In this document: one piece after another, positions 12,400-63,851 of the stretch
Layout: every line of letters starts with the position of its first letter
Numbering within the stretch: position 1 is the stretch's first letter
Origin: an uncultured Dehalococcoidia bacterium
Lineage (GTDB): Bacteria > Chloroflexota > Dehalococcoidia > Lucifugimonadales > GCA-2712585
Direction of reading: 5' to 3'
Assembly: GCA_958295715.1 (NCBI GenBank)
Contig: OY282371.1
Location: forward strand, 1,406,267 to 1,470,266
DNA length: 64,000 bases
Notes under the pieces: model-generated
Told to the model about the DNA's origin: nothing
Databases searched by the model: none
The model's input: only the letters and a program-made list of their open reading frames with translations
Program-made: the position numbers and the translations under genes

Positions 12400-12775
12400 G
12401 GCTCCCCTCTCGTCATTCCCGCGCAGGCGGGAATCCATCCCATCCCCTCTTTTACCTCAAGGCAATCGCACACCGGCGCAAAGAGCCAGTAAGAGCTAGT
12501 CTTGTTACGGACAAACCGGCTTAAGGTCTCCATCCCTCGTTAGGGGAGAGACGGGGGCGGGGGTCGCGGCGCAACGGGTGGCGGGTTGCCCAAGCACAAC
12601 GGAGTGGGGGGAGGGGATGGATTCCCGCCTTCGCGGGAATGACGGGAGGGGCGGCGGCGGGTATGACGGCGGCGGGCGGGCCGGAATCGGGAAGACCCCA
12701 ATCCAAAACCAACGCTCCGCAAAACAAAAATGGGCACACGTGCCCTTCCCGCCTGCGCGGGAATGACGGCGGGTA
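12400..12775. repeat. REP/NIME-like repeat cluster
   Basis: Fwd unit at 12412-12436 and rev unit at 12619-12643. Composite rev unit at 12697-12769 = hairpin module (GGGCACacGTGCCC at 12732-12745) fused to a REP. Confidence 0.85.
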
Positions 12776-24606: not shown

Positions 24607-24635
24607 ATTCTAGGCTGGCGGGGTGAGGGTGTCAA
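24607..24635 (-). promoter_or_regulatory. candidate promoter TTGACA-17-TAGAAT for the cyclase gene
   Basis: Minus-strand hexamers at 24635-24630 and 24612-24607. AAGGAGG RBS before the ATG at 24548. Confidence 0.45.
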
Positions 24636-24715: not shown

Positions 24716-25456
24716 TTAGCCGGTGAGCTTGGGGCAAAGGTTGGTCAGAGGACAGCCCGGGCAGTCGGGAGCGGTGGGACGACACCACTCCTGGCCGATG
24801 TTCCAAGCCGGCCAGTCCAGTTGAGCCGGATAGTCGGGATTCAGACGCTGAGCGGCTTCCACGGCCGCGCCCTCGGATTCGGAAGACGCCAGGCCGGCGC
24901 GCTTGAACACCCGCATAACGTGAACGTCGGGCTTCACGTCAATCTCGCGCTCCTGCCCCTTGAACATGCCCCAATCGTCATGCAGAAGGCGAACGGCCAT
25001 GCTCGCTATGCCGGGGCCGACGCCGTGTATGCTCCGGAGCCGCCGCGACGCCTGGGTGGGGGAGACCCCTTCCCAGATGGCGGCGGCGTTGCCTCCATGT
25101 TTAACGACCAGGGCCGCCGCTTCCTTCAGGGTTCTGGCCCCGCCGCCGTAGCGGGGTCTCACGGGCAGGCTTTCCAGCAGCCGCTTCAGGCGAGCCTCCG
25201 ACGACGAGGCCAGCTTGAAGGGGTCCAGCATCCCCCGCTGGTCTATCCGGTAAGGGATCTCCCACGCGCTCTTCCAAGGCAGGCCCCTATCGAAGGCCGC
25301 GCCCACCAGGAAGGCGAAGGGGTTGGTGTAGACCAGGTCTCCCACGTGCTTGGGGAGCCTTTCCCTGTCGGGCTGGTAGTAGCGCTGGCCGTGCTCCTTC
25401 AGGGCTTCCACCACGGCCTTGGAGCCGTCCGGAGTTGCTGAGGTATGCCGCGTCAT
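24716..25456 (-). CDS. HhH-GPD superfamily protein with Fe-S cluster loop (DNA glycosylase-like)
   Basis: 246 aa. HhH segment IHGVGPGIASM. C-terminal CRPTAPDCPGCPLTNLC (C-X6-C-X2-C-X5-C). ATGA overlap with the upstream gene. Confidence 0.7.
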   Translation of the reverse strand: MTRHTSATPDGSKAVVEALKEHGQRYYQPDRERLPKHVGDLVYTNPFAFLVGAAFDRGLPWKSAWEIPYRIDQRGMLDPFKLASSSEARLKRLLESLPVRPRYGGGARTLKEAAALVVKHGGNAAAIWEGVSPTQASRRLRSIHGVGPGIASMAVRLLHDDWGMFKGQEREIDVKPDVHVMRVFKRAGLASSESEGAAVEAAQRLNPDYPAQLDWPAWNIGQEWCRPTAPDCPGCPLTNLCPKLTG

Positions 25457-25896
25457 CTTTGAGCCTCCTTCTTGAGCCAGGCCATCTGCTCGCCCTGCCT
25501 CATGTGCGCCAAGGGTGTCTCAACCGCCACTCCGCGCCTTTCCAGGGGCTGGAGCAGAAGCCCGTAGTAGTCCCTGCCGGCGAGGAAGCAGACGCGCCGG
25601 ACGCCGCCCAGATGCGGTTCCAACGCGCCCATGACGCCATCCGCCCACCGGCGCCGCTGGGCAATCGTAAGGGAACCCATGTAGGTGTCGTACGGCGCGA
25701 TGACCTCCTCCGGCGAAACTACCCCGTGCTTGGCCGACAGGATGAGCCACCGGCCGCCCAGTCCCTCCACGTAGCGGCGGCACAGCTTGAAGCGCGTCGA
25801 GTCGTAAAGCTCCTTGGCCGGCAGAGGCTCCGCCCGCTTCCCCTTTACGCAGGAGACGAGGTAGAGGGTGGACACGCAACCGCTATTCCTCATCAT
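25453..25896 (-). CDS. DUF6884-like protein (function unknown)
   Basis: 147 aa. Pattern LVSCVKGK..PAKELYDSTRFK..ILSAKHGVVSPEEVIAPYD, recalled as DUF6884-type. ATGA overlaps on both sides. Confidence 0.5.
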   Translation of the reverse strand: MMRNSGCVSTLYLVSCVKGKRAEPLPAKELYDSTRFKLCRRYVEGLGGRWLILSAKHGVVSPEEVIAPYDTYMGSLTIAQRRRWADGVMGALEPHLGGVRRVCFLAGRDYYGLLLQPLERRGVAVETPLAHMRQGEQMAWLKKEAQR

Positions 25897-27122
25897 GGCG
25901 CGTGGGCGGCCTCTATGGGAACCCGGCGCCGGTGGGTGGCCGGGTCCAGGTTCCAGAAGCGTATGGGGTTGTCGGAGAGGAACTTCTTCTTGCTTTCGTC
26001 GCTCAGTTCCGGGTGGTCCAGCACCTTTTGGACGGAGAAGGGGGAGAGGCAGTCGAAGTGGGAGTAGTCGGAGCCGATGATGATGCCGTTGGGCCCGACC
26101 TTCTTTTCCAGGAAGGGGAGGTAGTCGGCCTCCTCCGGCTCAAAGCAGATGAAAAGCTGGTCGCCGAAGTAGTCGTTGGGGTCCTGGTGGCGGGGGGTGG
26201 GAACCGAGTCCGGCATAATCTCGTAGTGCTCTTCCAGCCGGTCCATGTAGAAGGGAAGCCAGCCGCAGCCCTGCTCAATCCAGGCTATCTTAAGCTCCGG
26301 GAACCTGTCCAAGACGCCGCTGGCGATGAAGCCCACGACGGAGAAGGGGGCGTCGATGCCCATGAAGAGGTGCTTTAGGAACTCGTTGTCGAGGCGCCGC
26401 ATACCCACCGACTCGTGGAGCTGCTGGTGTATGGATATGGGCATCCCCAGGCGCTGGCACTCCTCCAAGATGGGCCAAAACCGCTCCTTGTAGGTCCACT
26501 CGCCCTTGAACTGGCAGGGGATGTAGGCCCCGCCCAGGCCCAGGTCGGCGGCGCGCCTGAGTTCCTTCACGGCTACGTCCACGTCGTGGAGGGGAAGGAT
26601 GGCCGTGCCCCGGATGCGGTGTGTGTAACCGTCGGTCCACTCGCTGATCCAGTCATTCCAACCCTTGGCGAAGTGGTAGGCCACCTCCGGGTTGTCCACG
26701 GTGTTGAGGAGGTTCTGGTGGAGGACGCAGAAGACGAAGGTGAGGTCGAAGCCCTCGTCGTCCAGGTCCTTGACGCGGCTCTTGGGGTCCCGCTCGCCCT
26801 CGCGGTCGTACCACTGGTCGGGGCTGTGGGGGGCGAAGTTGGCGAGCTTGCCGTGAGGCCCCGTGCGGAAGTCGGAGTTGGGGAAGACCTTGGAGTGCTC
26901 AAGCACCCAGATGTGGTCGTACTGCCGCATGGTCGACCGGCCGCTGCCGCGGGCCTCGGCGCCCAGGTCCTTCCAGTTGGAGTCAACGAACTTGCGGGGC
27001 GCGAAGGGCTGGAGGTGGGGCGGGAACCGGCGCCACAGTTCGCACAGGGTCTCATCGATGTGGGAGTCGGAGTCTACGATGTAGTAGTCGGGGAGTTCTC
27101 CTCCAAAATACTGTCTAGGCAT
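25893..27122 (-). CDS. amidohydrolase-2 family (ACMSD/decarboxylase-hydrolase-like) protein
   Basis: 409 aa. VDSDSHIDE N-terminal metal motif, later ISIHQQ and GSDYSHFD. Confidence 0.75.
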   Translation of the reverse strand: MPRQYFGGELPDYYIVDSDSHIDETLCELWRRFPPHLQPFAPRKFVDSNWKDLGAEARGSGRSTMRQYDHIWVLEHSKVFPNSDFRTGPHGKLANFAPHSPDQWYDREGERDPKSRVKDLDDEGFDLTFVFCVLHQNLLNTVDNPEVAYHFAKGWNDWISEWTDGYTHRIRGTAILPLHDVDVAVKELRRAADLGLGGAYIPCQFKGEWTYKERFWPILEECQRLGMPISIHQQLHESVGMRRLDNEFLKHLFMGIDAPFSVVGFIASGVLDRFPELKIAWIEQGCGWLPFYMDRLEEHYEIMPDSVPTPRHQDPNDYFGDQLFICFEPEEADYLPFLEKKVGPNGIIIGSDYSHFDCLSPFSVQKVLDHPELSDESKKKFLSDNPIRFWNLDPATHRRRVPIEAAHAP

Positions 27123-27187
27123 GGGGCCTCCTGTGAGATTTAGATTTGATGGATGGGCGAGAAATATCTATAGGTAGTTACTTAGCG

Positions 27188-27220
27188 CCAACGGCGGCAA
27201 AAGTCAATTGCCGCCGTTGG
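27188..27220. promoter_or_regulatory. perfect 13-bp inverted repeat (CCAACGGCGGCAA-N7-TTGCCGCCGTTGG)
   Basis: Arms at 27188-27200 and 27208-27220. On the minus strand it overlaps a TTGACT-17-TAAGTA promoter-like pair upstream of the 27122 start. Confidence 0.4.
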
Positions 27221-27224
27221 CCCG

Positions 27225-27701
27225 ACGCCTCTCGCCCCCTGCCGGCCATCGACCCTCCCTTCCGTCATTCCCGCGCAGGCGGGAAGGGCACGCGTGCCCG
27301 CTTAGGTTTGAAGAGCGTGGTTCTGCGTTGGAGGCTTTTGCCCACCCCTATCCGCATTCCCGCCCTCTTATCCGTCATTCCCGCGCAGGCGGGAATCGAT
27401 CCCCTCCTTCCGGCATTGCGACGGGGCAACGGCGCAACGGCTCGCAACCCCGGCCCTCTTTCCGTCATTCCCGCGCAGGCGGGAATCCATCTTCCACCCC
27501 TCTATTACGCCAAGGCGACCCGCGCAAATCGCCGGCAAACGCTTGCCCCCTTTCCGGCCAAGACCCTGAATGCCCCCCATATCGTCAAGGAGACAAGGAC
27601 GGCAGCGCCACGAGGGACGCGCCGGAAACGCCTCTGCGGGTGAGACCGGAATTCGGGGCGCCGGATTTGGGTCGGGGCCTCCCTGGATTCCCGCCTGCGC
27701 G
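27225..27701. repeat. REP/NIME-like repeat cluster
   Basis: Composite fwd unit at 27264-27335 (REP + GGGCACgcGTGCCC + T-rich tail). Fwd REPs at 27374-27398 and 27464-27488. Module C at 27556-27664. Truncated rev REP at 27685-27701. Confidence 0.85.
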
Positions 27702-27755: not shown

Positions 27756-28124
27756 CTAGAACTTCAGCCGGGTTTTGCGATGGGCTACTGTGATGACCTG
27801 GTATTCCATACAGCCAACGACGCCGCCTGTGGACTTCACGACAACCAGGTAAATGTTAAAGGCCTCGCTCTGCCTCTTATACCCCTCGGCGCCTATCTTA
27901 GAGCGGGCGCGCCTGCGGCATCTGCTATCCATTGAAACGATGTATACGTTCTTATTGTCACGCTTCTTATTAGACTTACGATATTTGTGGTGTCTGAGTT
28001 TGCCATTGAGCAACATGGTTTCTATGTGTTCCCGATTTATTCCGCGCTGCTGGAACCTCCTTTGAGCGTGATCCGAGAAAAAGTAACTGAAACCGGGGTC
28101 ATGGTAGAAATTCACCACGTTCAT
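27756..28124 (-). CDS. DUF4258-like small protein (toxin-type fold)
   Basis: 122 aa, low GC (line 27961 hand count 40%). FSDHAQRRFQQRGINREHIETMLLNG and a C-terminal NIYLVVV..VITVAHRK pattern. Confidence 0.55.
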   Translation of the reverse strand: MNVVNFYHDPGFSYFFSDHAQRRFQQRGINREHIETMLLNGKLRHHKYRKSNKKRDNKNVYIVSMDSRCRRRARSKIGAEGYKRQSEAFNIYLVVVKSTGGVVGCMEYQVITVAHRKTRLKF

Positions 28125-28337: not shown

Positions 28338-28443
28338 GGATTCCCGCCTGCGCGGGAATGACGGACAGGAGGCGGGAATGCGGACAGGGGTAGGCAGAAG
28401 CCTCCAACGCAGAACCGGCTCTCTTCAAAACTAAGTGGGCGCC
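28338..28443. repeat. REP unit plus reverse hairpin/terminator-like module
   Basis: Rev REP at 28338-28362. Reverse module B at 28399-28443 (ccaacgcagaaccggctctcttcaaaactaagtGGGCGCCC), about 60 nt downstream of the stop of the 590-aa gene and in terminator orientation. Confidence 0.8.
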
Positions 28444-34680: not shown

Positions 34681-34996
34681 GTCATTCCCGCGCAGGCGGG
34701 AAGGGCGCGTGCGCCCACTTTGTCTTGACGAGCGTTCGCCCTGCTTTGGGCTGCTAGATTCCCGCCTTCACCTCTGTTCCGTCATTCCCGCGCAGGCGGG
34801 AAGGGCGCGTGCGCCCACTTTGTTTTGAAGAGCGTTGGTCCTGCTTTGGGCTGCTAGATTCCCGCCTCCCCCATCCGTCATTCCCGCGCAGGCGGGAAGG
34901 GCGCGTGCGCCCACTTTGTTTTGAAGAGCGTTGGTCCTGCTTTGGGCTGCTAGATTCCCGCCTCCCCATCCGTCATTCCCGCGCAGGCGGGAATCC
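34681..34996 (+). repeat. tandem array of 3 composite units (100, 96, 95 bp) plus terminal REP
   Basis: Units start at 34681, 34781 and 34877. Each unit = GTCATTCCCGCGCAGGCGGGAA + GGGCGCgtGCGCCC + ACTTTGTTTTGA.. + tggtcctgctttgggctgctagattcccgcc. Closing REP at 34972-34996. Confidence 0.9.
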
Positions 34997-35146
34997 ATCC
35001 CCTCTTGACCTTGCGCCGGGACAACCGCTCCACGGCGCGCGCTCCCATCCGTATAAGCGTCCCGGGTTGGCGCCTTCCGGCTCTCGCCCACAGTTATTAT
35101 CCGTAATGGTTGGATGGTCTGTTCATCTGATGAGAGGAGGGAAGAT

Positions 35147-35225
35147 GGATTCCCGCCTGCGTGGGAATGACGGGAAGGGGGGCGGGAATGACGGAAGGGG
35201 GAGAAAAGGGAATGACGGATAAGAG
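35147..35225. repeat. reverse REP followed by tandem GGGAATGACGG half-units
   Basis: GGATTCCCGCCTGCGTGGGAATGACGG at 35147-35171, then gcgggaatgacgg and gggaatgacgg repeats. Confidence 0.8.
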
Positions 35226-35330: not shown

Positions 35331-36029
35331 GTGAAGCTCAAGGACCTGCACCCCTGGAACGTGACCCCGGAGGCCGCCAGAGGCATACAACGGCGACTGG
35401 CGTCTCAGGTGTCGCTCACATCCGAGGTTCCCGCGGGGGCGCGGTGGATAGCAGGGGTGGACATTTCGGGGGCCAACCGCCAGGGTCTCGCCACCGGGGC
35501 CGTAGCGCTCCTCGACACCGTCACTCTGGCCGTGGGCGAGGTCCGGACGGCCCAGGCCATCCCTCCAATGCCCTACACGCCCGGCCTCCTATCCTTTCGC
35601 GAAATCCCCGTCTTGGCAGAGGCCCTCCGCTCCCTCTCCGTGACTCCCGACCTCATCATGGTGGACGGTCAGGGGTTGGCCCATCCGAGGCGCTTTGGCG
35701 TCGCCTGCCATCTCGGTCTGCTGACGGGCGTTCCCACCATCGGCTGCGCCAAGTCCATCCTCACGGGCAATCACTCGCCGCTTGGCCTTGAAAGAGGTTC
35801 CCAAGCCCCTCTGGTCGACCGCGGCGAGGGGGTGGGCGCGGCCCTGCGGACGCGAAGCGGCGTGTCGCCGGTGTACGTATCCGTTGGCCACAAGATAGAC
35901 TTGGAATCCGCCGTTCAGTGGGTTCTCCGGTGCGGCCGCGGCCTCCGCATTCCCGAACCCACCCGCCTGGCCCACCAAGCGGCCGCCGGGCGTTTGCCCT
36001 CAACCGCCGGACGCTCGGATATCGTATAA
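35331..36029 (+). CDS. nfi: endonuclease V
   Basis: 232 aa. IAGVDIS, PYTPGLLSFREIP, VDGQGLAHPRRFG, GCAKS. Confidence 0.9.
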   Translation: MKLKDLHPWNVTPEAARGIQRRLASQVSLTSEVPAGARWIAGVDISGANRQGLATGAVALLDTVTLAVGEVRTAQAIPPMPYTPGLLSFREIPVLAEALRSLSVTPDLIMVDGQGLAHPRRFGVACHLGLLTGVPTIGCAKSILTGNHSPLGLERGSQAPLVDRGEGVGAALRTRSGVSPVYVSVGHKIDLESAVQWVLRCGRGLRIPEPTRLAHQAAAGRLPSTAGRSDIV

Positions 36030-37219: not shown

Positions 37220-38110
37220 CGAGCGCCGGCCCTGCGTTAGGGGATGGATTCCCGCCCCTCCTTTCCGTCATTCCCGTGAAAACGGGAATCCAGGAACCCT
37301 ACACAGCAGAACCAACGCCCCAAACCCCGGCGTCGACCCGTCGGTTGCGCCCTCAACGCGGGTCTTGGCCGTAACGGGACTAGCGCTTACCGGCGATTTG
37401 CGCTGTTGCCCTAGTCTAATATAGGGAGGAAAGATGGATTCCCGCCTGCGCGGGAATGACGGAGTGGGGCAGGCGGGAAGGGCGCGGGTGCCCGCTTAAG
37501 TTTTGAAGAGGGCTGTTCCTGCGTTTGGGGGCTTCCTGGATTCCCGTTTTCACGGGAATGACGGATAAGAGGGCGGGAATGGCGATTGCGCTAGAGTCTT
37601 GCCAAGGGAGGCGTGGCCTCCCGCTTGCCTGCTAAGGGGCCGCCAAAGCGTTTACCCTTTCCCGTCATTCCCGCGCAGGCGGGAATCCATCTTCCTTACC
37701 GCTGCTGCGACGCCTTGGAGCCACGCGTTGGCCGCCCTCCGGCCATTGCCCGCCCCTCCCCTTTTCCGTCATTCCCGCGCAGGCGGGAATCCAGGAAGGT
37801 TTCGACTCAAAACCGGCGCCCCGAATTCCGGCCTCGCCCGTAGAGGCGGTTCCGGCGCACACGCCCCCTCGTGGACGCTGCCGTCCTTGTCCCCTTGACG
37901 AAATGGGGGCATTCAGGGTCTTGGCCGTAAGGCCCCGGCCCTTACCTGCGCGGCGCGGCCCTGTCGCAACCAAGTAAGGAAGATGGATTCCCGCCTGCGC
38001 GGGAATGACGGAGGGAGGGGAGCGGGAATGACGAAGTGGGGCAGGCGGGAAGGGCGCGTGGGGGAGCGGGAATGACGTGGGGGGTAGGCGCGGCCTCGCG
38101 CCGGGGGAGC
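37220..38110. repeat. largest REP/NIME-like mosaic cluster
   Basis: REP units at 37267-37291 (variant GTCATTCCCGTGAAAACGGGAATCC), 37436-37460 rev, 37528-37552 rev variant, 37664-37688 fwd, 37768-37792 fwd and 37985-38009 rev. Partial composite at 37469-37530. Module C at 37813-37926. Half-unit run at 38000-38080. Confidence 0.9.
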
Positions 38111-41914: not shown

Positions 41915-42025
41915 GGATTCCCGCCTACGCGGGAATGACGGAAGGGAGGGGGCGGGAATGCGGAGGGGTGGGGGCGGGAATGACGGAGGGGAGGGGGCGG
42001 GAATGCGGAGGGGAGAGGGGGGATG
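41915..42025. repeat. reverse REP plus about 4 tandem GGGGCGGGAATG(A/C)GGAGGGG half-units
   Basis: GGATTCCCGCCTACGCGGGAATGACGG at 41915-41941, followed by about 30-bp periodic half-units up to about 42025. Confidence 0.8.
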
Positions 42026-55464: not shown

Positions 55465-56154
55465 TTGAGATACGGCTCCAAGCTCATAGAGGCCCGCTTC
55501 ATCCGGCGGTTGAACCGGTTCGCCGCGCTGGTGGAGTTGGAGGGCGCGCACGTCCAGGCCCACGTGCCAAACTCCGGGCGTATGCGGGAGTTGCTGACGG
55601 AGGGCCGCCGGTCCCTGCTGCGGCGCGCCGGGAAGCCGGGCAGAAAGACGGCCTACGACCTGGCCCTGGTGGACCTGGGAGGCGTCCTCTGCTCGGTGGA
55701 CTCCCGTCTGCCGCCTCATTTGGTGGAGGAGGCCTTCGGCTCAGGCCGGCTGGAGCAGTTCGCCGGTTACCAGCAGGCGCGCCGGGAGGTGGGTCTGGGC
55801 GAGAGCCGCATCGACCTGGCCCTGTCGGGAGGAAGCGGGACGTGCTACGTGGAGACCAAGTCGGTGACGCTGGTGGAGGAGGGCGTGGCCCTCTTTCCCG
55901 ACGCGCCTACGGAGCGGGGGCGAAAGCATCTGGCCAGCCTGACGGAGGCCGTGAAGGCCGGCGACAGGGCCGCGGTGGTGTTCGTGGTCCAGCGCAGCGA
56001 CGCCGCCAGTTTCGTTCCTCACGACTCTGCCGACGAGCCATTCGGCCAGGCTCTGAGGGCGGCGGCGTCTCAGGGCGTGGAGGTCTATGCCTACCGGTGC
56101 CGGGTGAGCGCCGGGGCGATAACCTTGGAAAGCCGCATCCCGGTGAATCTCTAG
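55465..56154 (+). CDS. sfsA: SfsA-family nuclease-fold protein
   Basis: 229 aa. ARFIRRLNRFAALVELEGAHVQAHVPNSGRM. TTG start 9 nt after a TGgTATCAT box. Confidence 0.85.
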   Translation: MRYGSKLIEARFIRRLNRFAALVELEGAHVQAHVPNSGRMRELLTEGRRSLLRRAGKPGRKTAYDLALVDLGGVLCSVDSRLPPHLVEEAFGSGRLEQFAGYQQARREVGLGESRIDLALSGGSGTCYVETKSVTLVEEGVALFPDAPTERGRKHLASLTEAVKAGDRAAVVFVVQRSDAASFVPHDSADEPFGQALRAAASQGVEVYAYRCRVSAGAITLESRIPVNL

Positions 56155-56155
56155 G

Positions 56156-56857
56156 ATGACGGCCATGAACCATGAGAGCGCGGATATAGGCCCTCTGCTG
56201 AGGGAGGTGTACCGGCGCCTGCGCGAAGAGCACGGGGCGCAGAACTGGTGGCCGGCGGACTCCGCCTTCGAGGTGGCGGTCGGGGCCATCCTCACCCAGT
56301 CGGTGGCGTGGAGCAACGTTGAAAAGGCCCTGTCCAACCTGAAGAGCGCCGGGGTCCTGTCCCCCAAGGGTCTGTGGGACGTTCCAGTGGAGGAGTTGGC
56401 CGCGCTGATACGGCCTTCGGGCTACTTCAACGTGAAGGCCAGGCGGCTGAAGGCCTTCGCCGAGCGCCTGTGGACGGAGCATCAGGGCAGCTTGGAGGGG
56501 ATGTTCGCCATGGACGCGGCCTCCCTGCGGGAGGAGTTGCTGTCGATACACGGCATCGGCGAGGAGACCGCCGACGACATCATCCTCTACGCGGCGGGCA
56601 AGCCTCTGTTCGTCATTGACGCCTACACCCGCAGGGTGGTTGACCGGCTGAGGCCCGGCTGCGCGGGTCCCGGCTACGGGGAGTACCAGCGGCTTTTCCA
56701 CGACGCCCTGCCCAAGGATAGCTCCCTGTTCAACGAGTATCACGCCCTGCTGGTGCGCCACGGCAAGCACGTTTGCAGGAAGACGCCCCGGTGCGGGGAG
56801 TGCCGCCTCGTGGGGTTGTGCGTCACGGGCGGCGAGATGGCGGCGCGGAATGGCTGA
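56156..56857 (+). CDS. endonuclease III-related HhH-GPD protein with 4-Cys cluster
   Basis: 233 aa. NWWPADSAFEVAVGAILTQ, HhH IHGIGEETADDI, C-terminal CRKTPRCGECRLVGLC. Confidence 0.8.
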   Translation: MTAMNHESADIGPLLREVYRRLREEHGAQNWWPADSAFEVAVGAILTQSVAWSNVEKALSNLKSAGVLSPKGLWDVPVEELAALIRPSGYFNVKARRLKAFAERLWTEHQGSLEGMFAMDAASLREELLSIHGIGEETADDIILYAAGKPLFVIDAYTRRVVDRLRPGCAGPGYGEYQRLFHDALPKDSSLFNEYHALLVRHGKHVCRKTPRCGECRLVGLCVTGGEMAARNG

Positions 56858-60639: not shown

Positions 60640-60986
60640 GGCTTTCATGGGCGGGGTTGCCTCCCGTCCGTCATTCCCGCTCTCACCCTCTTATCCGTCA
60701 TTCCCGCGCAGGCGGGAAGGGCGCGTGCGCCCACTTAGTTTTGAGTAGCGCTGGTTCTGCGCGTTAGGTGTCCGTCATCCGCCGCCGGGTTACCCCCGTT
60801 CCAACGCGCGCCCCTCCCTTCGTCATTCCCGCTCCCTCCCTTCCGTCATTCCCGCGCAGGCGGGAAGGGCGCGTGCGCCCACTTAGTTTTGAGGAGAGCC
60901 GGTTCTGCGTTGGAGGCTTCCCGGCGTTCCCACCTCCCCACTCGTCATTCCCGCTTCTCCCTCCCGTCATTCCCGCGAAGGCGGGA
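60640..60986. repeat. REP/NIME-like repeat cluster, right end interrupted by IS
   Basis: Composite fwd units at 60697-60768 and 60845-60917 (GGGCGCgtGCGCCC hairpins). Half-units at 60669 and 60830. REP at 60966-60986 is cut after GCGGGA. Confidence 0.85.
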
Positions 60987-61977
60987 TGTGAATTCACATT
61001 TCAAGTGCAACACCTTGTTCCGGAAAGTTTCGGCTGGGGTCCGGTAGTCCAGACACTTGCGAGGGGTGTGGTTGTAGGCTTGGACCAGTTGGGTGAAGCG
61101 CTCCTCGGACACCGCCGCCAGGTCGGTCTTGCGGGGCAGGGTCCTCCGCAGCCGGCCAATGGCGTTCTCCACGCCGCCCTTCTGCCAGGGGGAGCGGGTG
61201 TCGCAGAAGAAGGTCTGGATGCCGAGGGCGTGGAGAAGGTGGTGGCGGGCGAACTCCGTGCCGTTGTCGAAGGCGACCGTCTGGCGCCACTCCTGGGGCA
61301 AGGGCCCCAAGGGCCTCGGCGATAGCAGTGGCGATGGGTCCCGCGGCCTTCCCCGGGGGTCTGAGGGCTATGAGCAGGCGGGTGCAGCGCTCGTGGAGGA
61401 TGAGGACGACTTGGCCGTAGGCGCTGAAGAGCATGGTGTCGGCCTCCCAGTGGCCCGGCTTCTGGCGGTCATCCGCATCCTGAGGACGCTCTTCCAAGGG
61501 CAGGCGGTCGGGGATGAAGGACACGGAACTGCCGCCCCGGCGCCCCCGCCAGCCTCGTCTGGACTTGCGCCGGGGCAGGTAGAGCCGCCAGGAGTAGTCC
61601 TTCCTGCGGGCTATCTGGGCGTAAATGAACCGGTAGATAGACTCATGGGAGATGACCGTCCTTCCCTTCTCCAGGGCCAGCCGGCCGGACACCTGCTCCG
61701 GGGACCAGCCTAGCTCGAGACGGGCGAGGACATCCTCCCGAAGGGTGGGGTCGCGGGTCAGCCGGTGACCGTGCCAACGGCGGGCGTGGGCCTGTTGGTC
61801 GGCGTACTTGGGCCGGTAGCCGCCATTGGCCGAAGGATTGCGCTTCAACTCCCGAGCAACCGTTGATGGCGAGCGATCCAGAGCTGCCGCGATTTGGCGG
61901 AGGGAGTGTCCCGTGGCATGTAGTCGGGCAATTTCACACCGTTCCACAATGTCGAGCTGCGTGTAGTGGAGTCCCAT
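60945..61977 (-). pseudogene. IS30-family transposase, frameshifted
   Basis: N-terminal HTH + core in the frame of ORF 60994-61977 up to ..AIAEALG. C-terminal ..LPQEWRQTVAFDNGTEF..PWQKGGVENAIGRLR in the frame of ORF 60945-61310. The shift maps to a GGGG run near 61305. The distal frame has no stop inside the IS. Confidence 0.75.
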
Positions 61978-62021: not shown

Positions 62022-62700
62022 GAATCCATCCCCCCTTATCCCCGTTGCGACAGGTGGCTGGCGCGGGATTGCCTCCCCGTCCGTCATTCCCGCGCCCTCC
62101 CTTCCGTCATTCCCGCGCAGGCGGGAATCCATCTCCTCTTATCCCCGTTTCGACAGGTGGCTGGCCCGTGGTTGCCGCCCCGTCCGTCATTCCCGCTTCC
62201 CTCTCCCGTCATTCCCGCGCAGGCGGGAATCCATCCCCTCTTATCCCCGTTGCGACAGGTGGCTAGCGCGTGGTTGCCGCCCCGTCCGTCATTCCCGCCC
62301 CCCTCCATCCGTCATTCCCGTGAAAACGGGAATCCAGGAACCCTTCATGGCAAAACCAGCGCTTCAACCCCTAGCGTCGCCTTGTGGGCGGCCCTCCGGC
62401 CCGCCGCTCGTAGGGGTTGGGTTGTCCGTTCATATGATTAGAGGGGGAAGATGGATTCCCGCCTGCGCGGGAATGACGGATTCGGGGGGCGGGGTTCGGG
62501 GCGCTGGCTCTGCGTTGAGGCCTTCCTGGATTCCCGCCTGCGCGGGAATGACGGGAAGGGAGGCGCGGGCGGTGGTAGCGAGCGTGACCGGTGGCCCCGG
62601 GGCTTGGGGCGTTGGCTTTGGGGTGTAAGGTTCCTGGATTCCCGTTTTCACGGGAATGACGGATAGGGGGGCGGCAATGACGGATTCGGGCGGGAATTCA
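62022..62700. repeat. REP/NIME-like cluster with a 3 x 102-bp tandem array
   Basis: Tandem units begin at 62022, 62124 and 62226 (..GAATCCATCCCCTCTTATCCCCGTTGCGACAGGTGGCTGGCGCGTGGTTGCCGCCCCGTCCGTCATTCCCGC..). REPs at 62106, 62208 and 62311 (variant) fwd. REPs at 62453, 62528 and 62636 (variant) rev. Confidence 0.9.
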
Positions 62701-62774: not shown

Positions 62775-63851
62775 ATGAAGTTGCCATTTGGAGTCGTTGA
62801 CGCCGACGGTCATATCAATGAGCCGGAGACCAAGCTGATGTCGTACCTGGAGGGGCCCTACGCCGACATCAAGAACTTTCACAGCTACATACCCGGCGGC
62901 GACGGCGCGGTGGGGGGAAGCGTGATTGCCGGCAAGGACTATATGGACTCGTCCCTGGGGGGCAGGCTCGGCGCCCACGGCGGGCCCGACTTCCCAACGC
63001 CCCAGGAGTGGCTCGATAACGCCGACGTGGGGAGCATGGAGACGGTTTTCGTCTTCCCAACAACCCTCTTGGGTTACGCCCGCATCATCGACCCGGACTA
63101 CCTCATCGCCCTGACGAGGGCCTACAACAACTACATCTCCGAGGAGTGGTTGAAGTTCAGCCCCAGGTTCAAGTCGGTGGCCCTGATGCCGATGATGGAC
63201 GTCGAGGAGTCGATTAAGGAGATGCGGCGGTGCGTCACCGAGTTGGGCTTCAACGGGGTTTTCCTCTCCGCCGTCGGGTTTGGGCTGCTGGGCGAGAAGC
63301 GGAATGACCCCTTCTACGCCGAGGCGGAAAGGCTGGGAACCACCGTGGCCGTCCACGGCGGCCACGCCACCGCCGAGTCTCAGAAGTACACCAAGTTCAT
63401 CCAGAGGCACACCATCGGGTTCCCGGTTTCCAACATGATGCAGATGATGCACATGACCTACGAGGGCGTCTACGAGAAGTTCCCCACCCTTAAGGTCGGC
63501 TACCTGGAGGCGGGATGCACCTGGGTCCCCTACCTCCTGGACCGCATGGATGAGGAGTGGGAGAAGCGGGGCTGGTTTGAGACCCCCAACTGCAAGAAGA
63601 AGCCCAGCGAGTACATTAAGGGCGGGAACGTCTTCATCCACGCGGAGCCCGGCGAGGAGCTAATCCCCGAGGTCATCCGGGTGATGGGCTCCAACCGGCT
63701 CTTCTACGCCTCGGACTGGCCCCACTGGGACAACGAGTACCCGGACAGCGTGTTCCACATCTGGCAGCGGGACGACCTGACGGAGGAGCAGAAGCGGGGA
63801 ATACTGCGGGGCAACGCCTCGGAGATGTACGGCTTGGCGAACGGCGGCTAG
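62775..63851 (+). CDS. amidohydrolase-2 family (ACMSD-like) protein
   Basis: 358 aa. VVDADGHINEPE, ..ASDWPHWD. Paralogous in type to 25893-27122. Confidence 0.8.
   Translation: MKLPFGVVDADGHINEPETKLMSYLEGPYADIKNFHSYIPGGDGAVGGSVIAGKDYMDSSLGGRLGAHGGPDFPTPQEWLDNADVGSMETVFVFPTTLLGYARIIDPDYLIALTRAYNNYISEEWLKFSPRFKSVALMPMMDVEESIKEMRRCVTELGFNGVFLSAVGFGLLGEKRNDPFYAEAERLGTTVAVHGGHATAESQKYTKFIQRHTIGFPVSNMMQMMHMTYEGVYEKFPTLKVGYLEAGCTWVPYLLDRMDEEWEKRGWFETPNCKKKPSEYIKGGNVFIHAEPGEELIPEVIRVMGSNRLFYASDWPHWDNEYPDSVFHIWQRDDLTEEQKRGILRGNASEMYGLANGG

Follow-up and report, generated by a model that had tools for sequence, protein, structure and literature searches.

A DUF6884 and predicted iron-sulfur DNA glycosylase gene pair forms a candidate mobile defence cassette beside an unrelated amidohydrolase gene in an uncultured Dehalococcoidia bacterium

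Introduction

Several described systems bring a DUF6884 protein or a DNA-glycosylase fold to bear on DNA. The Pfam curators assign DUF6884 to a YaaA-like 'cantaloupe' fold whose DNA-binding cleft is basic, and in their account an AlphaFold 3 model of B. subtilis YfjM flips a nucleotide into a conserved pocket (PMC11701544). YfjM, a DUF6884 protein, was enriched on DNA baits carrying abasic sites and ribonucleotides (PMC10220248), and sensitivity to H2O2, mitomycin C and UV has been described for YaaA mutants (PMC10055390). In vitro, DpdC, which also belongs to DUF6884, turns preQ0-DNA into ADG-DNA without DpdA or DpdB (PMC10164549; bioRxiv 10.1101/2025.02.24.639861). On the glycosylase side, endonuclease III (EndoIII)-like domains sense hypermodified phage DNA in END nucleases, where a catalytically dead EndoIII domain is fused to a PLD nuclease, and Brig1 glycosylases, which have a different fold, give defence (PMC12191111). 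Here we describe a gene pair that couples a DUF6884 protein to a predicted DNA glycosylase of the iron-sulfur helix-hairpin-helix (HhH) type, located in a 64,000-nt stretch of the genome of an uncultured Dehalococcoidia bacterium (contig OY282371.1, positions 1,406,267 to 1,470,266; the whole stretch is hereafter called the window), and we compare it with these systems.

Results

A DUF6884 gene and a glycosylase gene form a conserved unit

Three contiguous minus-strand open reading frames (ORFs) make up the locus. An earlier note on this DNA had described them as joined by two 4-nt ATGA overlaps, and the coordinates and both overlaps proved correct, with a caveat on the start of the DUF6884 gene that is taken up below. 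The features are:

25893..27122, minus strand: Amidohydro_2 (ACMSD/PtmU3-like) gene, 409 aa; syntenic and core to the lineage; adjoins the cassette without belonging to it
25453..25896, minus strand: DUF6884 gene, cassette gene 1, 147 aa; predicted YaaA/DpdC-like fold; alternative GTG start at 25875-25873
24716..25456, minus strand: predicted [4Fe-4S] HhH-GPD DNA glycosylase gene, cassette gene 2, 246 aa; undescribed subfamily
25893..25896, minus strand: ATGA in which the amidohydrolase stop codon overlaps the first ATG of the DUF6884 ORF; secondary junction, probably not the start that is used
25453..25456, minus strand: ATGA stop/start overlap between the DUF6884 and glycosylase genes; the tight coupling of the pair is conserved

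A glycosylase profile (A1) scanned against one genome per GTDB species yielded 80 loci, in which DUF6884/YaaA-like ORFs were sought by iterative hidden Markov model search; the 56 loci with at least 1.2 kb of flank on both sides were treated as informative (L and P numbers are labels for fetched loci and proteins of relatives). A DUF6884/YaaA-like ORF lay beside the glycosylase in 28 of the 80 loci and in 22 of the 56 informative ones, and the pair was found in Chloroflexota, Gammaproteobacteria, Acidobacteriota, Armatimonadota and Bathyarchaeota. Adjacent pairs were nearly always encoded on the same strand, within about 100 nt of each other or overlapping, with both gene orders represented, and all confident DUF6884 matches in about 1 Mb of flanking sequence fell less than 1 kb from the glycosylase. 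Moreover, pairwise identities of the two proteins correlate across loci (Mantel r = 0.59, a value reached by 0 of 2000 permutations). The best 150 family representatives include 94 proteins of at least 300 aa, of which 36 were DUF6884-glycosylase fusions, and DUF6884 was N-terminal to the glycosylase in 35 of these 36, which is the gene order of the window; further fusions occurred in L033 and L057. Judged from sequence comparison, the coupling, co-divergence and fusions mark the DUF6884-glycosylase pair as a genuine unit.

The DUF6884/glycosylase junction of the window reads ATGA (...caaagATGAcgcgg... at 25456-25453), and equivalent overlaps span 29 nt in L005, 16 nt in L081 and 4 nt in L171. 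The N-terminus of the window glycosylase, MTRHTS, is also present in P0002 and P0027. Translational coupling of the pair is supported by these overlaps; the stoichiometric co-expression that the earlier note had read into them does not follow from an overlap. The amidohydrolase/DUF6884 junction likewise reads ATGA (...gcgccATGAtgagg... at 25896-25893). The closest DUF6884 homologues (P0122-P0125) begin with 'MGTLYLVSC' at the position of window codon 8, the DUF6884 gene of L005 starts at the equivalent GTG with a GGGAG Shine-Dalgarno sequence ahead of it, and the first approximately 8 residues of the window protein have low confidence in its AlphaFold2 (AF2) model. For these reasons the GTG at 25875-25873 is predicted to be at least as likely a start as the ATG at 25896. 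The overlap with the amidohydrolase gene depends on that ATG; with the GTG start the two genes would be separated by a 17-nt spacer, and the ATGA may be incidental.

A literature search found no paper on the DUF6884-glycosylase association, PDC-M57, DUF328 with a glycosylase, or DUF7662/DUF7669. The components are of known kinds (HhH-GPD glycosylases and DUF6884/DpdC), and the pairing, the glycosylase subfamily and the behaviour as a mobile cassette appear to be undescribed.

The cassette occupies a variable site and is separate from the amidohydrolase

When the 80 glycosylase loci were searched by tblastn with the amidohydrolase, it was co-located only in L005, a sister Dehalococcoidia genome, and there a gene encoding a 210-aa protein, here called X210, sits between the amidohydrolase and DUF6884 genes. 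A second scan was seeded with the amidohydrolase, and 14 related loci were compared in which this protein is 77-89% identical to that of the window. The order amidohydrolase, X210, cyclase was found in all 14, with a variable site between X210 and the cyclase. It belongs to a block of constant gene order in which dCTP deaminase or a variable region precedes these three genes, and alpha/beta hydrolase, signal peptidase, inositol-1-phosphate synthase, a GT4 glycosyltransferase and a CDP-alcohol phosphatidyltransferase follow them. Of this block the window keeps the downstream part. X210, a protein of 195-210 aa (e.g. L005 6890-7522, L169 7255-7887, L165 6280-6867) that gave no Pfam match and is absent from the window, is likely the true functional partner of the amidohydrolase.

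The site between X210 and the cyclase is empty in 10 of the 14 related loci (L165-167, L169, L175-179, L182), holds a glycosylase alone in two (L180 and L181; 52% identical) and holds DUF6884 plus glycosylase in two (L005 and L170); in the window the pair is present and X210 is missing. The three families thus occur together only in the window and the two sister genomes L005 and L170, and X210 intervenes in both sisters. In L005 and L170 the cassette has a GC content at third codon positions (GC3) of 0.50-0.64, against 0.81-0.87 for the flanking genes. Between the window and these two loci the cassette proteins share 60-69% identity, against 86-89% for the flanking amidohydrolase and cyclase, and the 90%-identity cluster of the amidohydrolase has 113 members, while the window DUF6884 protein and glycosylase are singletons. 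Elsewhere the gene upstream of the pair differs, one example being a class-III aminotransferase gene in L081. In L171 and L173 the genes upstream of the glycosylase encode proteins of 209-211 aa and 163 aa, which show no relationship to one another or to X210.

The downstream limit of the cassette is marked by the cyclase promoter:

24607..24635, minus strand: sigma-70-like promoter TTGACA-17-TAGAAT (11/12), in the 167-nt spacer between glycosylase and cyclase; marks the downstream end of the cassette transcription unit

This promoter, TTGACA-17-TA(G/A)AAT, is kept both with the cassette (L005) and without it (L169).

The three overlapping genes are two unrelated units side by side, not one functional trio, and the pair is very probably an autonomous cassette unrelated to the amidohydrolase. 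The cassette would be horizontally mobile and would have inserted at a hotspot, polymorphic among relatives, that lies between X210 and the promoter of the cyclase; X210 would then have been lost in the window, bringing the cassette against the amidohydrolase, and it is this loss that would account for the ATGA junction between them. The earlier note had conjectured that the glycosylase is coupled to the amidohydrolase in the processing or salvage of an unusual or modified base, and had named a lack of co-localisation in other genomes as a ground for rejecting this. On that ground the conjecture fails: the 10 loci with the empty site have the amidohydrolase without the pair, X210 lies between them in L005 and L170, and the cassette is a separate insertion. 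Its broader idea, that the glycosylase works with a neighbour on an unusual base, is plausible for the DUF6884 protein and not for the amidohydrolase. Comparative synteny therefore splits an apparent operon into two units and corrects a tempting guilt-by-association inference on the amidohydrolase, which in the Dehalococcoidia lineage studied here has a variable site of gene insertion on either side.

The amidohydrolase itself matches Pfam Amidohydro_2 (5e-23; 82.7 bits, above the gathering cutoff of 26.4), so the family assignment of the earlier note holds. This family includes base decarboxylases. The nearest solved structures were PtmU3 (1e-23), DitZ (3e-19) and ACMSD (5e-18), the closest of these relatives acting on diterpenoid or aromatic small molecules, and no iso-orotate decarboxylase was present among the 34 PDB matches at E<=1e-3; linkage to the glycosylase is not conserved either, and an iso-orotate-decarboxylase-like role is not supported. 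A distant paralogue of the amidohydrolase is encoded in the window at about 63000-63836 on the plus strand (26% identity over 283 residues, E 1e-27).

Predicted properties of the two cassette proteins

The glycosylase gave no Pfam match at E<=0.01, including PF00730 (HhH-GPD), and scored 42.4 bits against NCBIfam TIGR03252, below the cutoff of 136.5. Over its whole length its profile can be aligned with endonuclease III 1orn, the hairpin motif IHGVGPGIASM falling on LPGVGRKTANV. In an alignment of 26 homologues the GVG hairpin is invariant (G145 and G147), as are C225, C232, C235 and C241, whose spacing C-x6-C-x2-C-x5-C predicts the cluster loop. D177, in KPDVHVMRV, aligns to the catalytic Asp of AVDTHVERV in 1orn and is conserved in at least 90% of A1; across 120 family sequences the Asp motif is kept in 106 and the Cys motif in 113. 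The AF2 model (mean predicted local distance difference test score, pLDDT, 94.3) is a two-domain all-helical fold for which Foldseek returned EndoIII, MUTYH, MIG and MutY with template modelling (TM) scores of 0.6-0.77 (1orn: probability 1.0, TM 0.67/0.75). The alignment, the invariant cysteines and the model together confirm what the earlier note had seen in the last gene, namely a helix-hairpin-helix and a C-X6-C-X2-C-X5-C loop of the EndoIII/MutY type. At the position of EndoIII Lys120 the window protein reads GVGPGIA, against GVGRKTA in EndoIII; it has no Lys there and is therefore predicted to be a monofunctional glycosylase. Within the 120 family members this site is PG in 43 and QK in 20, the latter retaining the Lys (GVGQK). 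The protein ends 5 residues past the last cluster Cys (246 aa), and has no C-terminal NUDIX-like domain.

An exhaustive profile search of 1.84 billion representatives identified 407 family representatives (clusters at 50% identity) at E<=1e-30, and the closest homologues are spread over about six phyla at 50-65% identity. The protein thus belongs to a distinct iron-sulfur HhH glycosylase subfamily, with no Pfam model and at least 407 representative clusters, in which about a quarter of the best representatives are fused to DUF6884. Carriage of the family by phages or plasmids was considered and rejected, as only two distant relatives were present in IMG/VR and none was found among the PLSDB plasmids.

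Other genes for base repair are present in the window. A second, canonical HhH-GPD glycosylase (56156-56857, plus strand; Pfam PF00730 at 53 bits), closest to MagIII 1pu6 (1e-18) and Deinococcus EndoIII-1 and with a C-x5-C-x2-C-x5-C loop, is encoded directly after an SfsA gene (55465-56154), and an endonuclease V gene, for another deaminated-base repair enzyme, lies at 35331-36029 (plus strand; Pfam 5e-68).

The domain of unknown function that the earlier note had named for the middle gene is indeed DUF6884 (PF21818), matched at 2e-41 (141.7 bits against a cutoff of 30) over profile positions 2-135 of 135. The CxxxK (C16, K20) and LSAxxG (L53-S54-A55-x2-G58) motifs are present and invariant or nearly so; C16, K20, S54, A55 and Y69 are among the residues invariant in 31 DUF6884 homologues, and the DUF6884 partners of the glycosylase keep CxxxK in 26 of 29 and LSA in 29 of 29 cases. 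Foldseek comparison of the AF2 model of the 147-aa protein (pLDDT 94.8), a check that the earlier note had proposed, led to YaaA 5caj (probability 1.0, query-normalized TM score, TMq, 0.50, E 6.5e-3), AF0587 and SMUG1 of the UDG superfamily; the match in the structure search is a modest one, and the family as a whole leads to YaaA and DpdC. Some glycosylase-adjacent partners fit the YaaA Pfam model better than that of DUF6884 (L037). Against PADLOC models, the window protein matched PDC-M57A over its full length (1.9e-30) and DpdC over residues 22-72 only (4.9e-5).

Phages encode DUF6884 too, with homologues in 141 records, of which 126 are from mycobacteriophages. A DUF6884 gene of Halorubrum tailed virus 29 (MZ334526.1; L184 3986-5111), annotated as 'YaaA', overlaps the start of dpdA; the genes around DUF6884 in Caulobacter phage Kronos were uninformative. 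A link to queuosine metabolism was considered from a QueF gene and a Vut_1 transporter gene beside DUF6884 in L082 and was rejected, since the arrangement did not recur in any other locus. Nine metagenomic DUF6884 loci (L118, L121, L124, L126, L143-L145, L149 and L151), without either the glycosylase or the PDC-M57B gene described below, share conserved neighbours of 292, 186, 150 and 212 aa, none of which has a Pfam match.

Defence-associated neighbours and domain fusions

In 80 metagenomic DUF6884 loci, PDC-M57B was encoded immediately downstream of DUF6884 in 44 and the glycosylase was present in 5. PDC-M57B is a 246-aa GIY_YIG_3 protein by its precomputed Pfam match. The idea that it might be a divergent glycosylase was tried and discarded (hhalign probability 0.8%, no PDB or NCBIfam match, identity as GIY_YIG_3). 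Glycosylase, DUF6884 and M57B genes occur together as trios in L010, L017, L019, L021, L022 and L107, and in L018 with DUF6884 on the opposite strand; loci with all three include Pseudomonadales and Azotimanducaceae. The window lacks M57B (best tblastn E 0.5) and therefore does not contain the PDC-M57 pair.

Furthermore, one protein (P0406) has the glycosylase domain fused to McrB_N and AAA_5, and in another (P0407) a DUF6884-glycosylase fusion carries HEPN_Swt1. Genes near the pair in various loci encode GmrSD (L005, L170), a Type ISP restriction-modification system, MNT/HEPN-like proteins, RelB/YafQ toxin-antitoxin proteins and a PLD-SNF2 protein, several other neighbours gave no Pfam match, and integrases were found near the glycosylase in five loci. 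Other architectures within the glycosylase family (among P0406, P0407, P0351, P0377, P0342 and P0271) comprise DUF7662-DUF6884-glycosylase proteins and DUF7669, the latter in 6 proteins. One fusion with an IS110 transposase was also seen, and may be a merged gene call.

Upstream of the amidohydrolase, the window carries a low-GC island with a DUF4258 gene, a HEC-07-like protein and a ResIII helicase, all absent from relatives. The segment 28503-32743 encodes a 603-aa protein whose C-terminus matches PADLOC HEC-07 (3.5e-18) and, beside it, a 752-aa ResIII/Helicase_C protein (RadD-like 3e-37; mREase_IV-like 4e-22), and is a probable defence island. The position of this HEC-07/helicase island is held by GmrSD in L005 and L170 and by other genes in L169 and L180.

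Repeats and inserts upstream of the amidohydrolase

The 13-bp perfect palindrome that the earlier note had placed at 27188-27220 is real and slightly longer than described, with arms of 14 nt:

27187..27221, no strand assigned: perfect palindrome, arms 27187-27200 and 27208-27221, 7-nt loop; lineage-specific

As single-stranded DNA the palindrome folds at -21.6 kcal/mol (z = -5.95). Its loop carries a TTGACT hexamer (27207-27202, minus strand) 65 nt upstream of the amidohydrolase ATG, and in an alignment with 7 relatives only CAATTGAC(A/T)TT in the loop is conserved, the arms not. In most relatives the conserved TTGAC(A/T) hexamer is followed at about 17 nt by TTCAAT; the -10 region of the window has diverged, and a simple promoter scan calls no promoter there. 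No T-run follows the palindrome, so that it is not a canonical terminator, and the window contains no further exact copies. Two explanations of the hairpin are possible, an operator or a scar marking the border of the inserted island. Neither an Rfam scan nor a tRNA scan of the window gave a match.

Intergenic clusters of the window contain 27 copies of a palindromic, REP-like unit of 22 nt, TTCCCGCCTGCGCGGGAATGAC (at most 3 mismatches, 0 expected):

REP-like clusters: 49-414, 12412-12767, 27264-27485, 28341-28362, 34681-35171, 37439-38009, 41918-41939, 60697-60987 and 62106-62552

In relatives L169 and L177-179 a Y1 transposase (RAYT-like, with a faint Pfam match) is encoded beside the amidohydrolase. 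The segment 27236-28440 of the window, in which a low-GC (0.49) DUF4258 gene (27756-28124, minus strand) lies between long inverted repeats of REP-like units, for example a 46-nt pair that is 93% complementary (27319-27364 and 28371-28416), looks like a small mobile or recombined insert.

Discussion

The overall explanation that we consider best, with slightly more confidence than doubt, is that a mobile DUF6884-glycosylase cassette beside an unrelated amidohydrolase acts on non-canonical DNA bases, probably in defence. The two cassette proteins act as one unit, as their coupling, their co-inheritance and co-divergence and their frequent fusion show, and, by homology, they would act directly on duplex DNA. 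The DUF6884 protein, with its pocket around C16 and K20, might flip and read a non-canonical base, or edit it hydrolytically, and so provide specificity, a step for which homology is a weaker guide; alternatively it might handle the abasic product. The glycosylase, resembling its homologues, would cleave the N-glycosidic bond by means of D177 and, being monofunctional, leave an abasic site. The genomic context suggests, with moderate support, that the target would be foreign DNA with modified bases, in a type IV-like restriction with a glycosylase as effector. As the catalytic Asp is conserved, the glycosylase itself is probably the effector.

The defence reading is proposed because the cassette varies at a hotspot, has foreign GC3 in L005 and L170, is scattered over phyla, keeps company with defence genes and enters into McrB and HEPN fusions, and because other parts of the window encode a canonical HhH-GPD enzyme and endonuclease V. 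On these grounds housekeeping repair or base salvage appears less likely than restriction of modified foreign DNA. For defence as such, our confidence and our doubt are evenly balanced.

A number of points weigh against this explanation. In 34 of the 56 informative loci the glycosylase has no DUF6884 gene within 8 kb on either side, so that the association is optional unless the partner gene lies elsewhere. Nothing that looks like an immunity or self-protection gene can be seen. The likeness of the modelled DUF6884 protein to YaaA is modest (see above). The window cassette has a host-like GC3 (0.81-0.85), which means either long residence here or a GC-rich donor. Neither a promoter nor a terminator is predicted between this cassette and the amidohydrolase gene, and all three genes may be co-transcribed. 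Moreover, the case for defence is one of genomic context only, we know of no activity, substrate or phenotype for the glycosylase subfamily or for stand-alone DUF6884 proteins, and the ties of YaaA and YfjM to DNA-damage responses fit repair equally well.

Among the alternatives, a specialised DNA-repair pair is unlikely but has the most to recommend it. Here the glycosylase would remove an endogenous lesion (oxidised, alkylated or deaminated), and the DUF6884 protein would sense the lesion, or shield or process the abasic site via Cys16 and Lys20. With its intact catalytic Asp the glycosylase is a member of the EndoIII/MutY/MIG repair superfamily, YfjM is enriched on abasic-site and ribonucleotide baits (PMC10220248) and YaaA mutants have the sensitivities to H2O2, mitomycin C and UV noted above (PMC10055390); the glycosylase is often alone and without an immunity gene, and since the clade of the window has no lyase Lys, a partner for abasic sites would make sense. 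However, presence and absence of the genes vary among near-identical genomes at a single hotspot, the GC3 in L005 and L170 is foreign, and the closest homologues, at 50-65% identity, are scattered over about six phyla. The McrB and HEPN fusions and the swap of partner to a GIY-YIG nuclease in a defence candidate are atypical of housekeeping repair, and the window already encodes a canonical HhH-GPD enzyme and endonuclease V.

A more elaborate form of the defence reading, in which a base is edited and then excised, we regard as rather improbable. By analogy with DpdC, which hydrates the preQ0 nitrile, the Cys-Lys pocket of DUF6884 would alter by hydrolysis, or covalently engage, a base of the invader, such as 7-deazaguanine or another hypermodified base, and the glycosylase would remove the product, leaving many abasic sites. 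If true, prokaryotes would have an analogue of the APOBEC/UNG logic, and stand-alone YaaA-like proteins would gain a first biochemical role.

Less probable again, and to our minds very doubtful, is a DNA modification system like that of DpdA and DpdC, in which the HhH-GPD enzyme would exchange or remove a base and DUF6884 would convert the base installed, so marking the DNA of the host. It is true that DpdC is a DUF6884 protein acting after the transglycosylase DpdA (PMC10164549), that a DUF6884 gene overlaps the dpdA start in Halorubrum tailed virus 29, and that the queuine-salvage glycosylase DUF2419 (7u07) appears, at low rank, in the Foldseek list of the glycosylase. However, base exchange in DNA is not known for any HhH-GPD enzyme, the DpdC match is weak and partial (4.9e-5 over 50 residues), and neither queC, queD, queE and folE nor DpdA and DpdB accompany the pair in any fetched locus; a dpdA homologue was found neither in the window nor in any pair locus, and there is no dpdB or preQ0 pathway near the window gene.

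We give almost no credence to the three-gene operon of the earlier note, in which the glycosylase would free an unusual base for the amidohydrolase to hydrolyse or decarboxylate in salvage or detoxification. In its favour, the three ORFs adjoin one another on the same strand, neither a promoter nor a terminator is predicted between them, and Amidohydro_2 includes base decarboxylases. Against it, the trio is confined to one sub-lineage with X210 between the genes in sisters, X210 is the conserved partner of the amidohydrolase, the cassette was inserted and has had a history of its own, copies of it elsewhere stand behind unrelated genes, and the nearest solved amidohydrolase relatives use diterpenoid or aromatic small molecules.

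Should the defence reading of the mobile cassette be true, it would add to antiphage mechanisms an active-glycosylase effector with a separate reader or editor protein. The function of YaaA-like/DUF6884 proteins has remained a puzzle since YaaA was described, and a glycosylase partner, alternating with a GIY-YIG nuclease or DpdA, points to a DNA transaction at the level of the base.

The locus can be set against known systems gene by gene. The amidohydrolase shares the TIM-barrel amidohydrolase-2 domain of the ACMSD/PtmU3/DitZ branch at approximately 25-30% identity to the PtmU3, DitZ and ACMSD structures; its N-terminus, D19-S-H21, is like the 'DSH' of PtmU3, whereas ACMSD has HxH, and its gene goes with those of X210 and the cyclase and not with that of the glycosylase. 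The glycosylase has the two-domain fold of EndoIII, MutY and MIG, with the GVG hairpin, the catalytic Asp about 30 residues past it and the Cys loop, but is only 16-20% identical to these enzymes. It has no Lys120 equivalent and is not Nth, has no NUDIX-like domain and is not MutY, and differs from that family by an N-terminal motif of its own, PFAFLxGAAFDRG. Unlike EndoIII, MutY and MIG, it is accessory and mobile, and is often fused or adjacent to DUF6884.

E. coli YaaA (DUF328), the product of a conserved OxyR-regulon gene, has about 260 aa, against 147 aa for the window DUF6884 protein, and to our knowledge neither YaaA nor YfjM has been reported with a glycosylase partner. Both have an alpha/beta 'cantaloupe' DNA-binding fold that is probably related to that of the window protein (PMC11701544; 5caj). 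In Brig1 and the END nucleases, as in the reading preferred here, a DNA-glycosylase fold reads non-canonical bases in foreign DNA, and the genes are accessory and lie in defence islands; the window pair differs from END nucleases in that the catalytic Asp is conserved and the partner is DUF6884. DpdC is in the same Pfam family as the window protein and acts on a base within DNA beside DpdA, which breaks an N-glycosidic bond. It is longer (about 310 aa against 147 aa), the match covers only about 50 residues (4.9e-5), and its partner is DpdA where that of the window protein is an HhH-GPD glycosylase. PDC-M57, a PADLOC candidate, follows the same logic as the window pair, with DUF6884 coupled to a DNA-cleaving enzyme, although that enzyme, M57B, is unrelated to the window glycosylase. 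Since DUF6884 is encoded beside a GIY-YIG nuclease, a glycosylase or dpdA, it is a recurrent module on enzymes that cut DNA at the base or the backbone.

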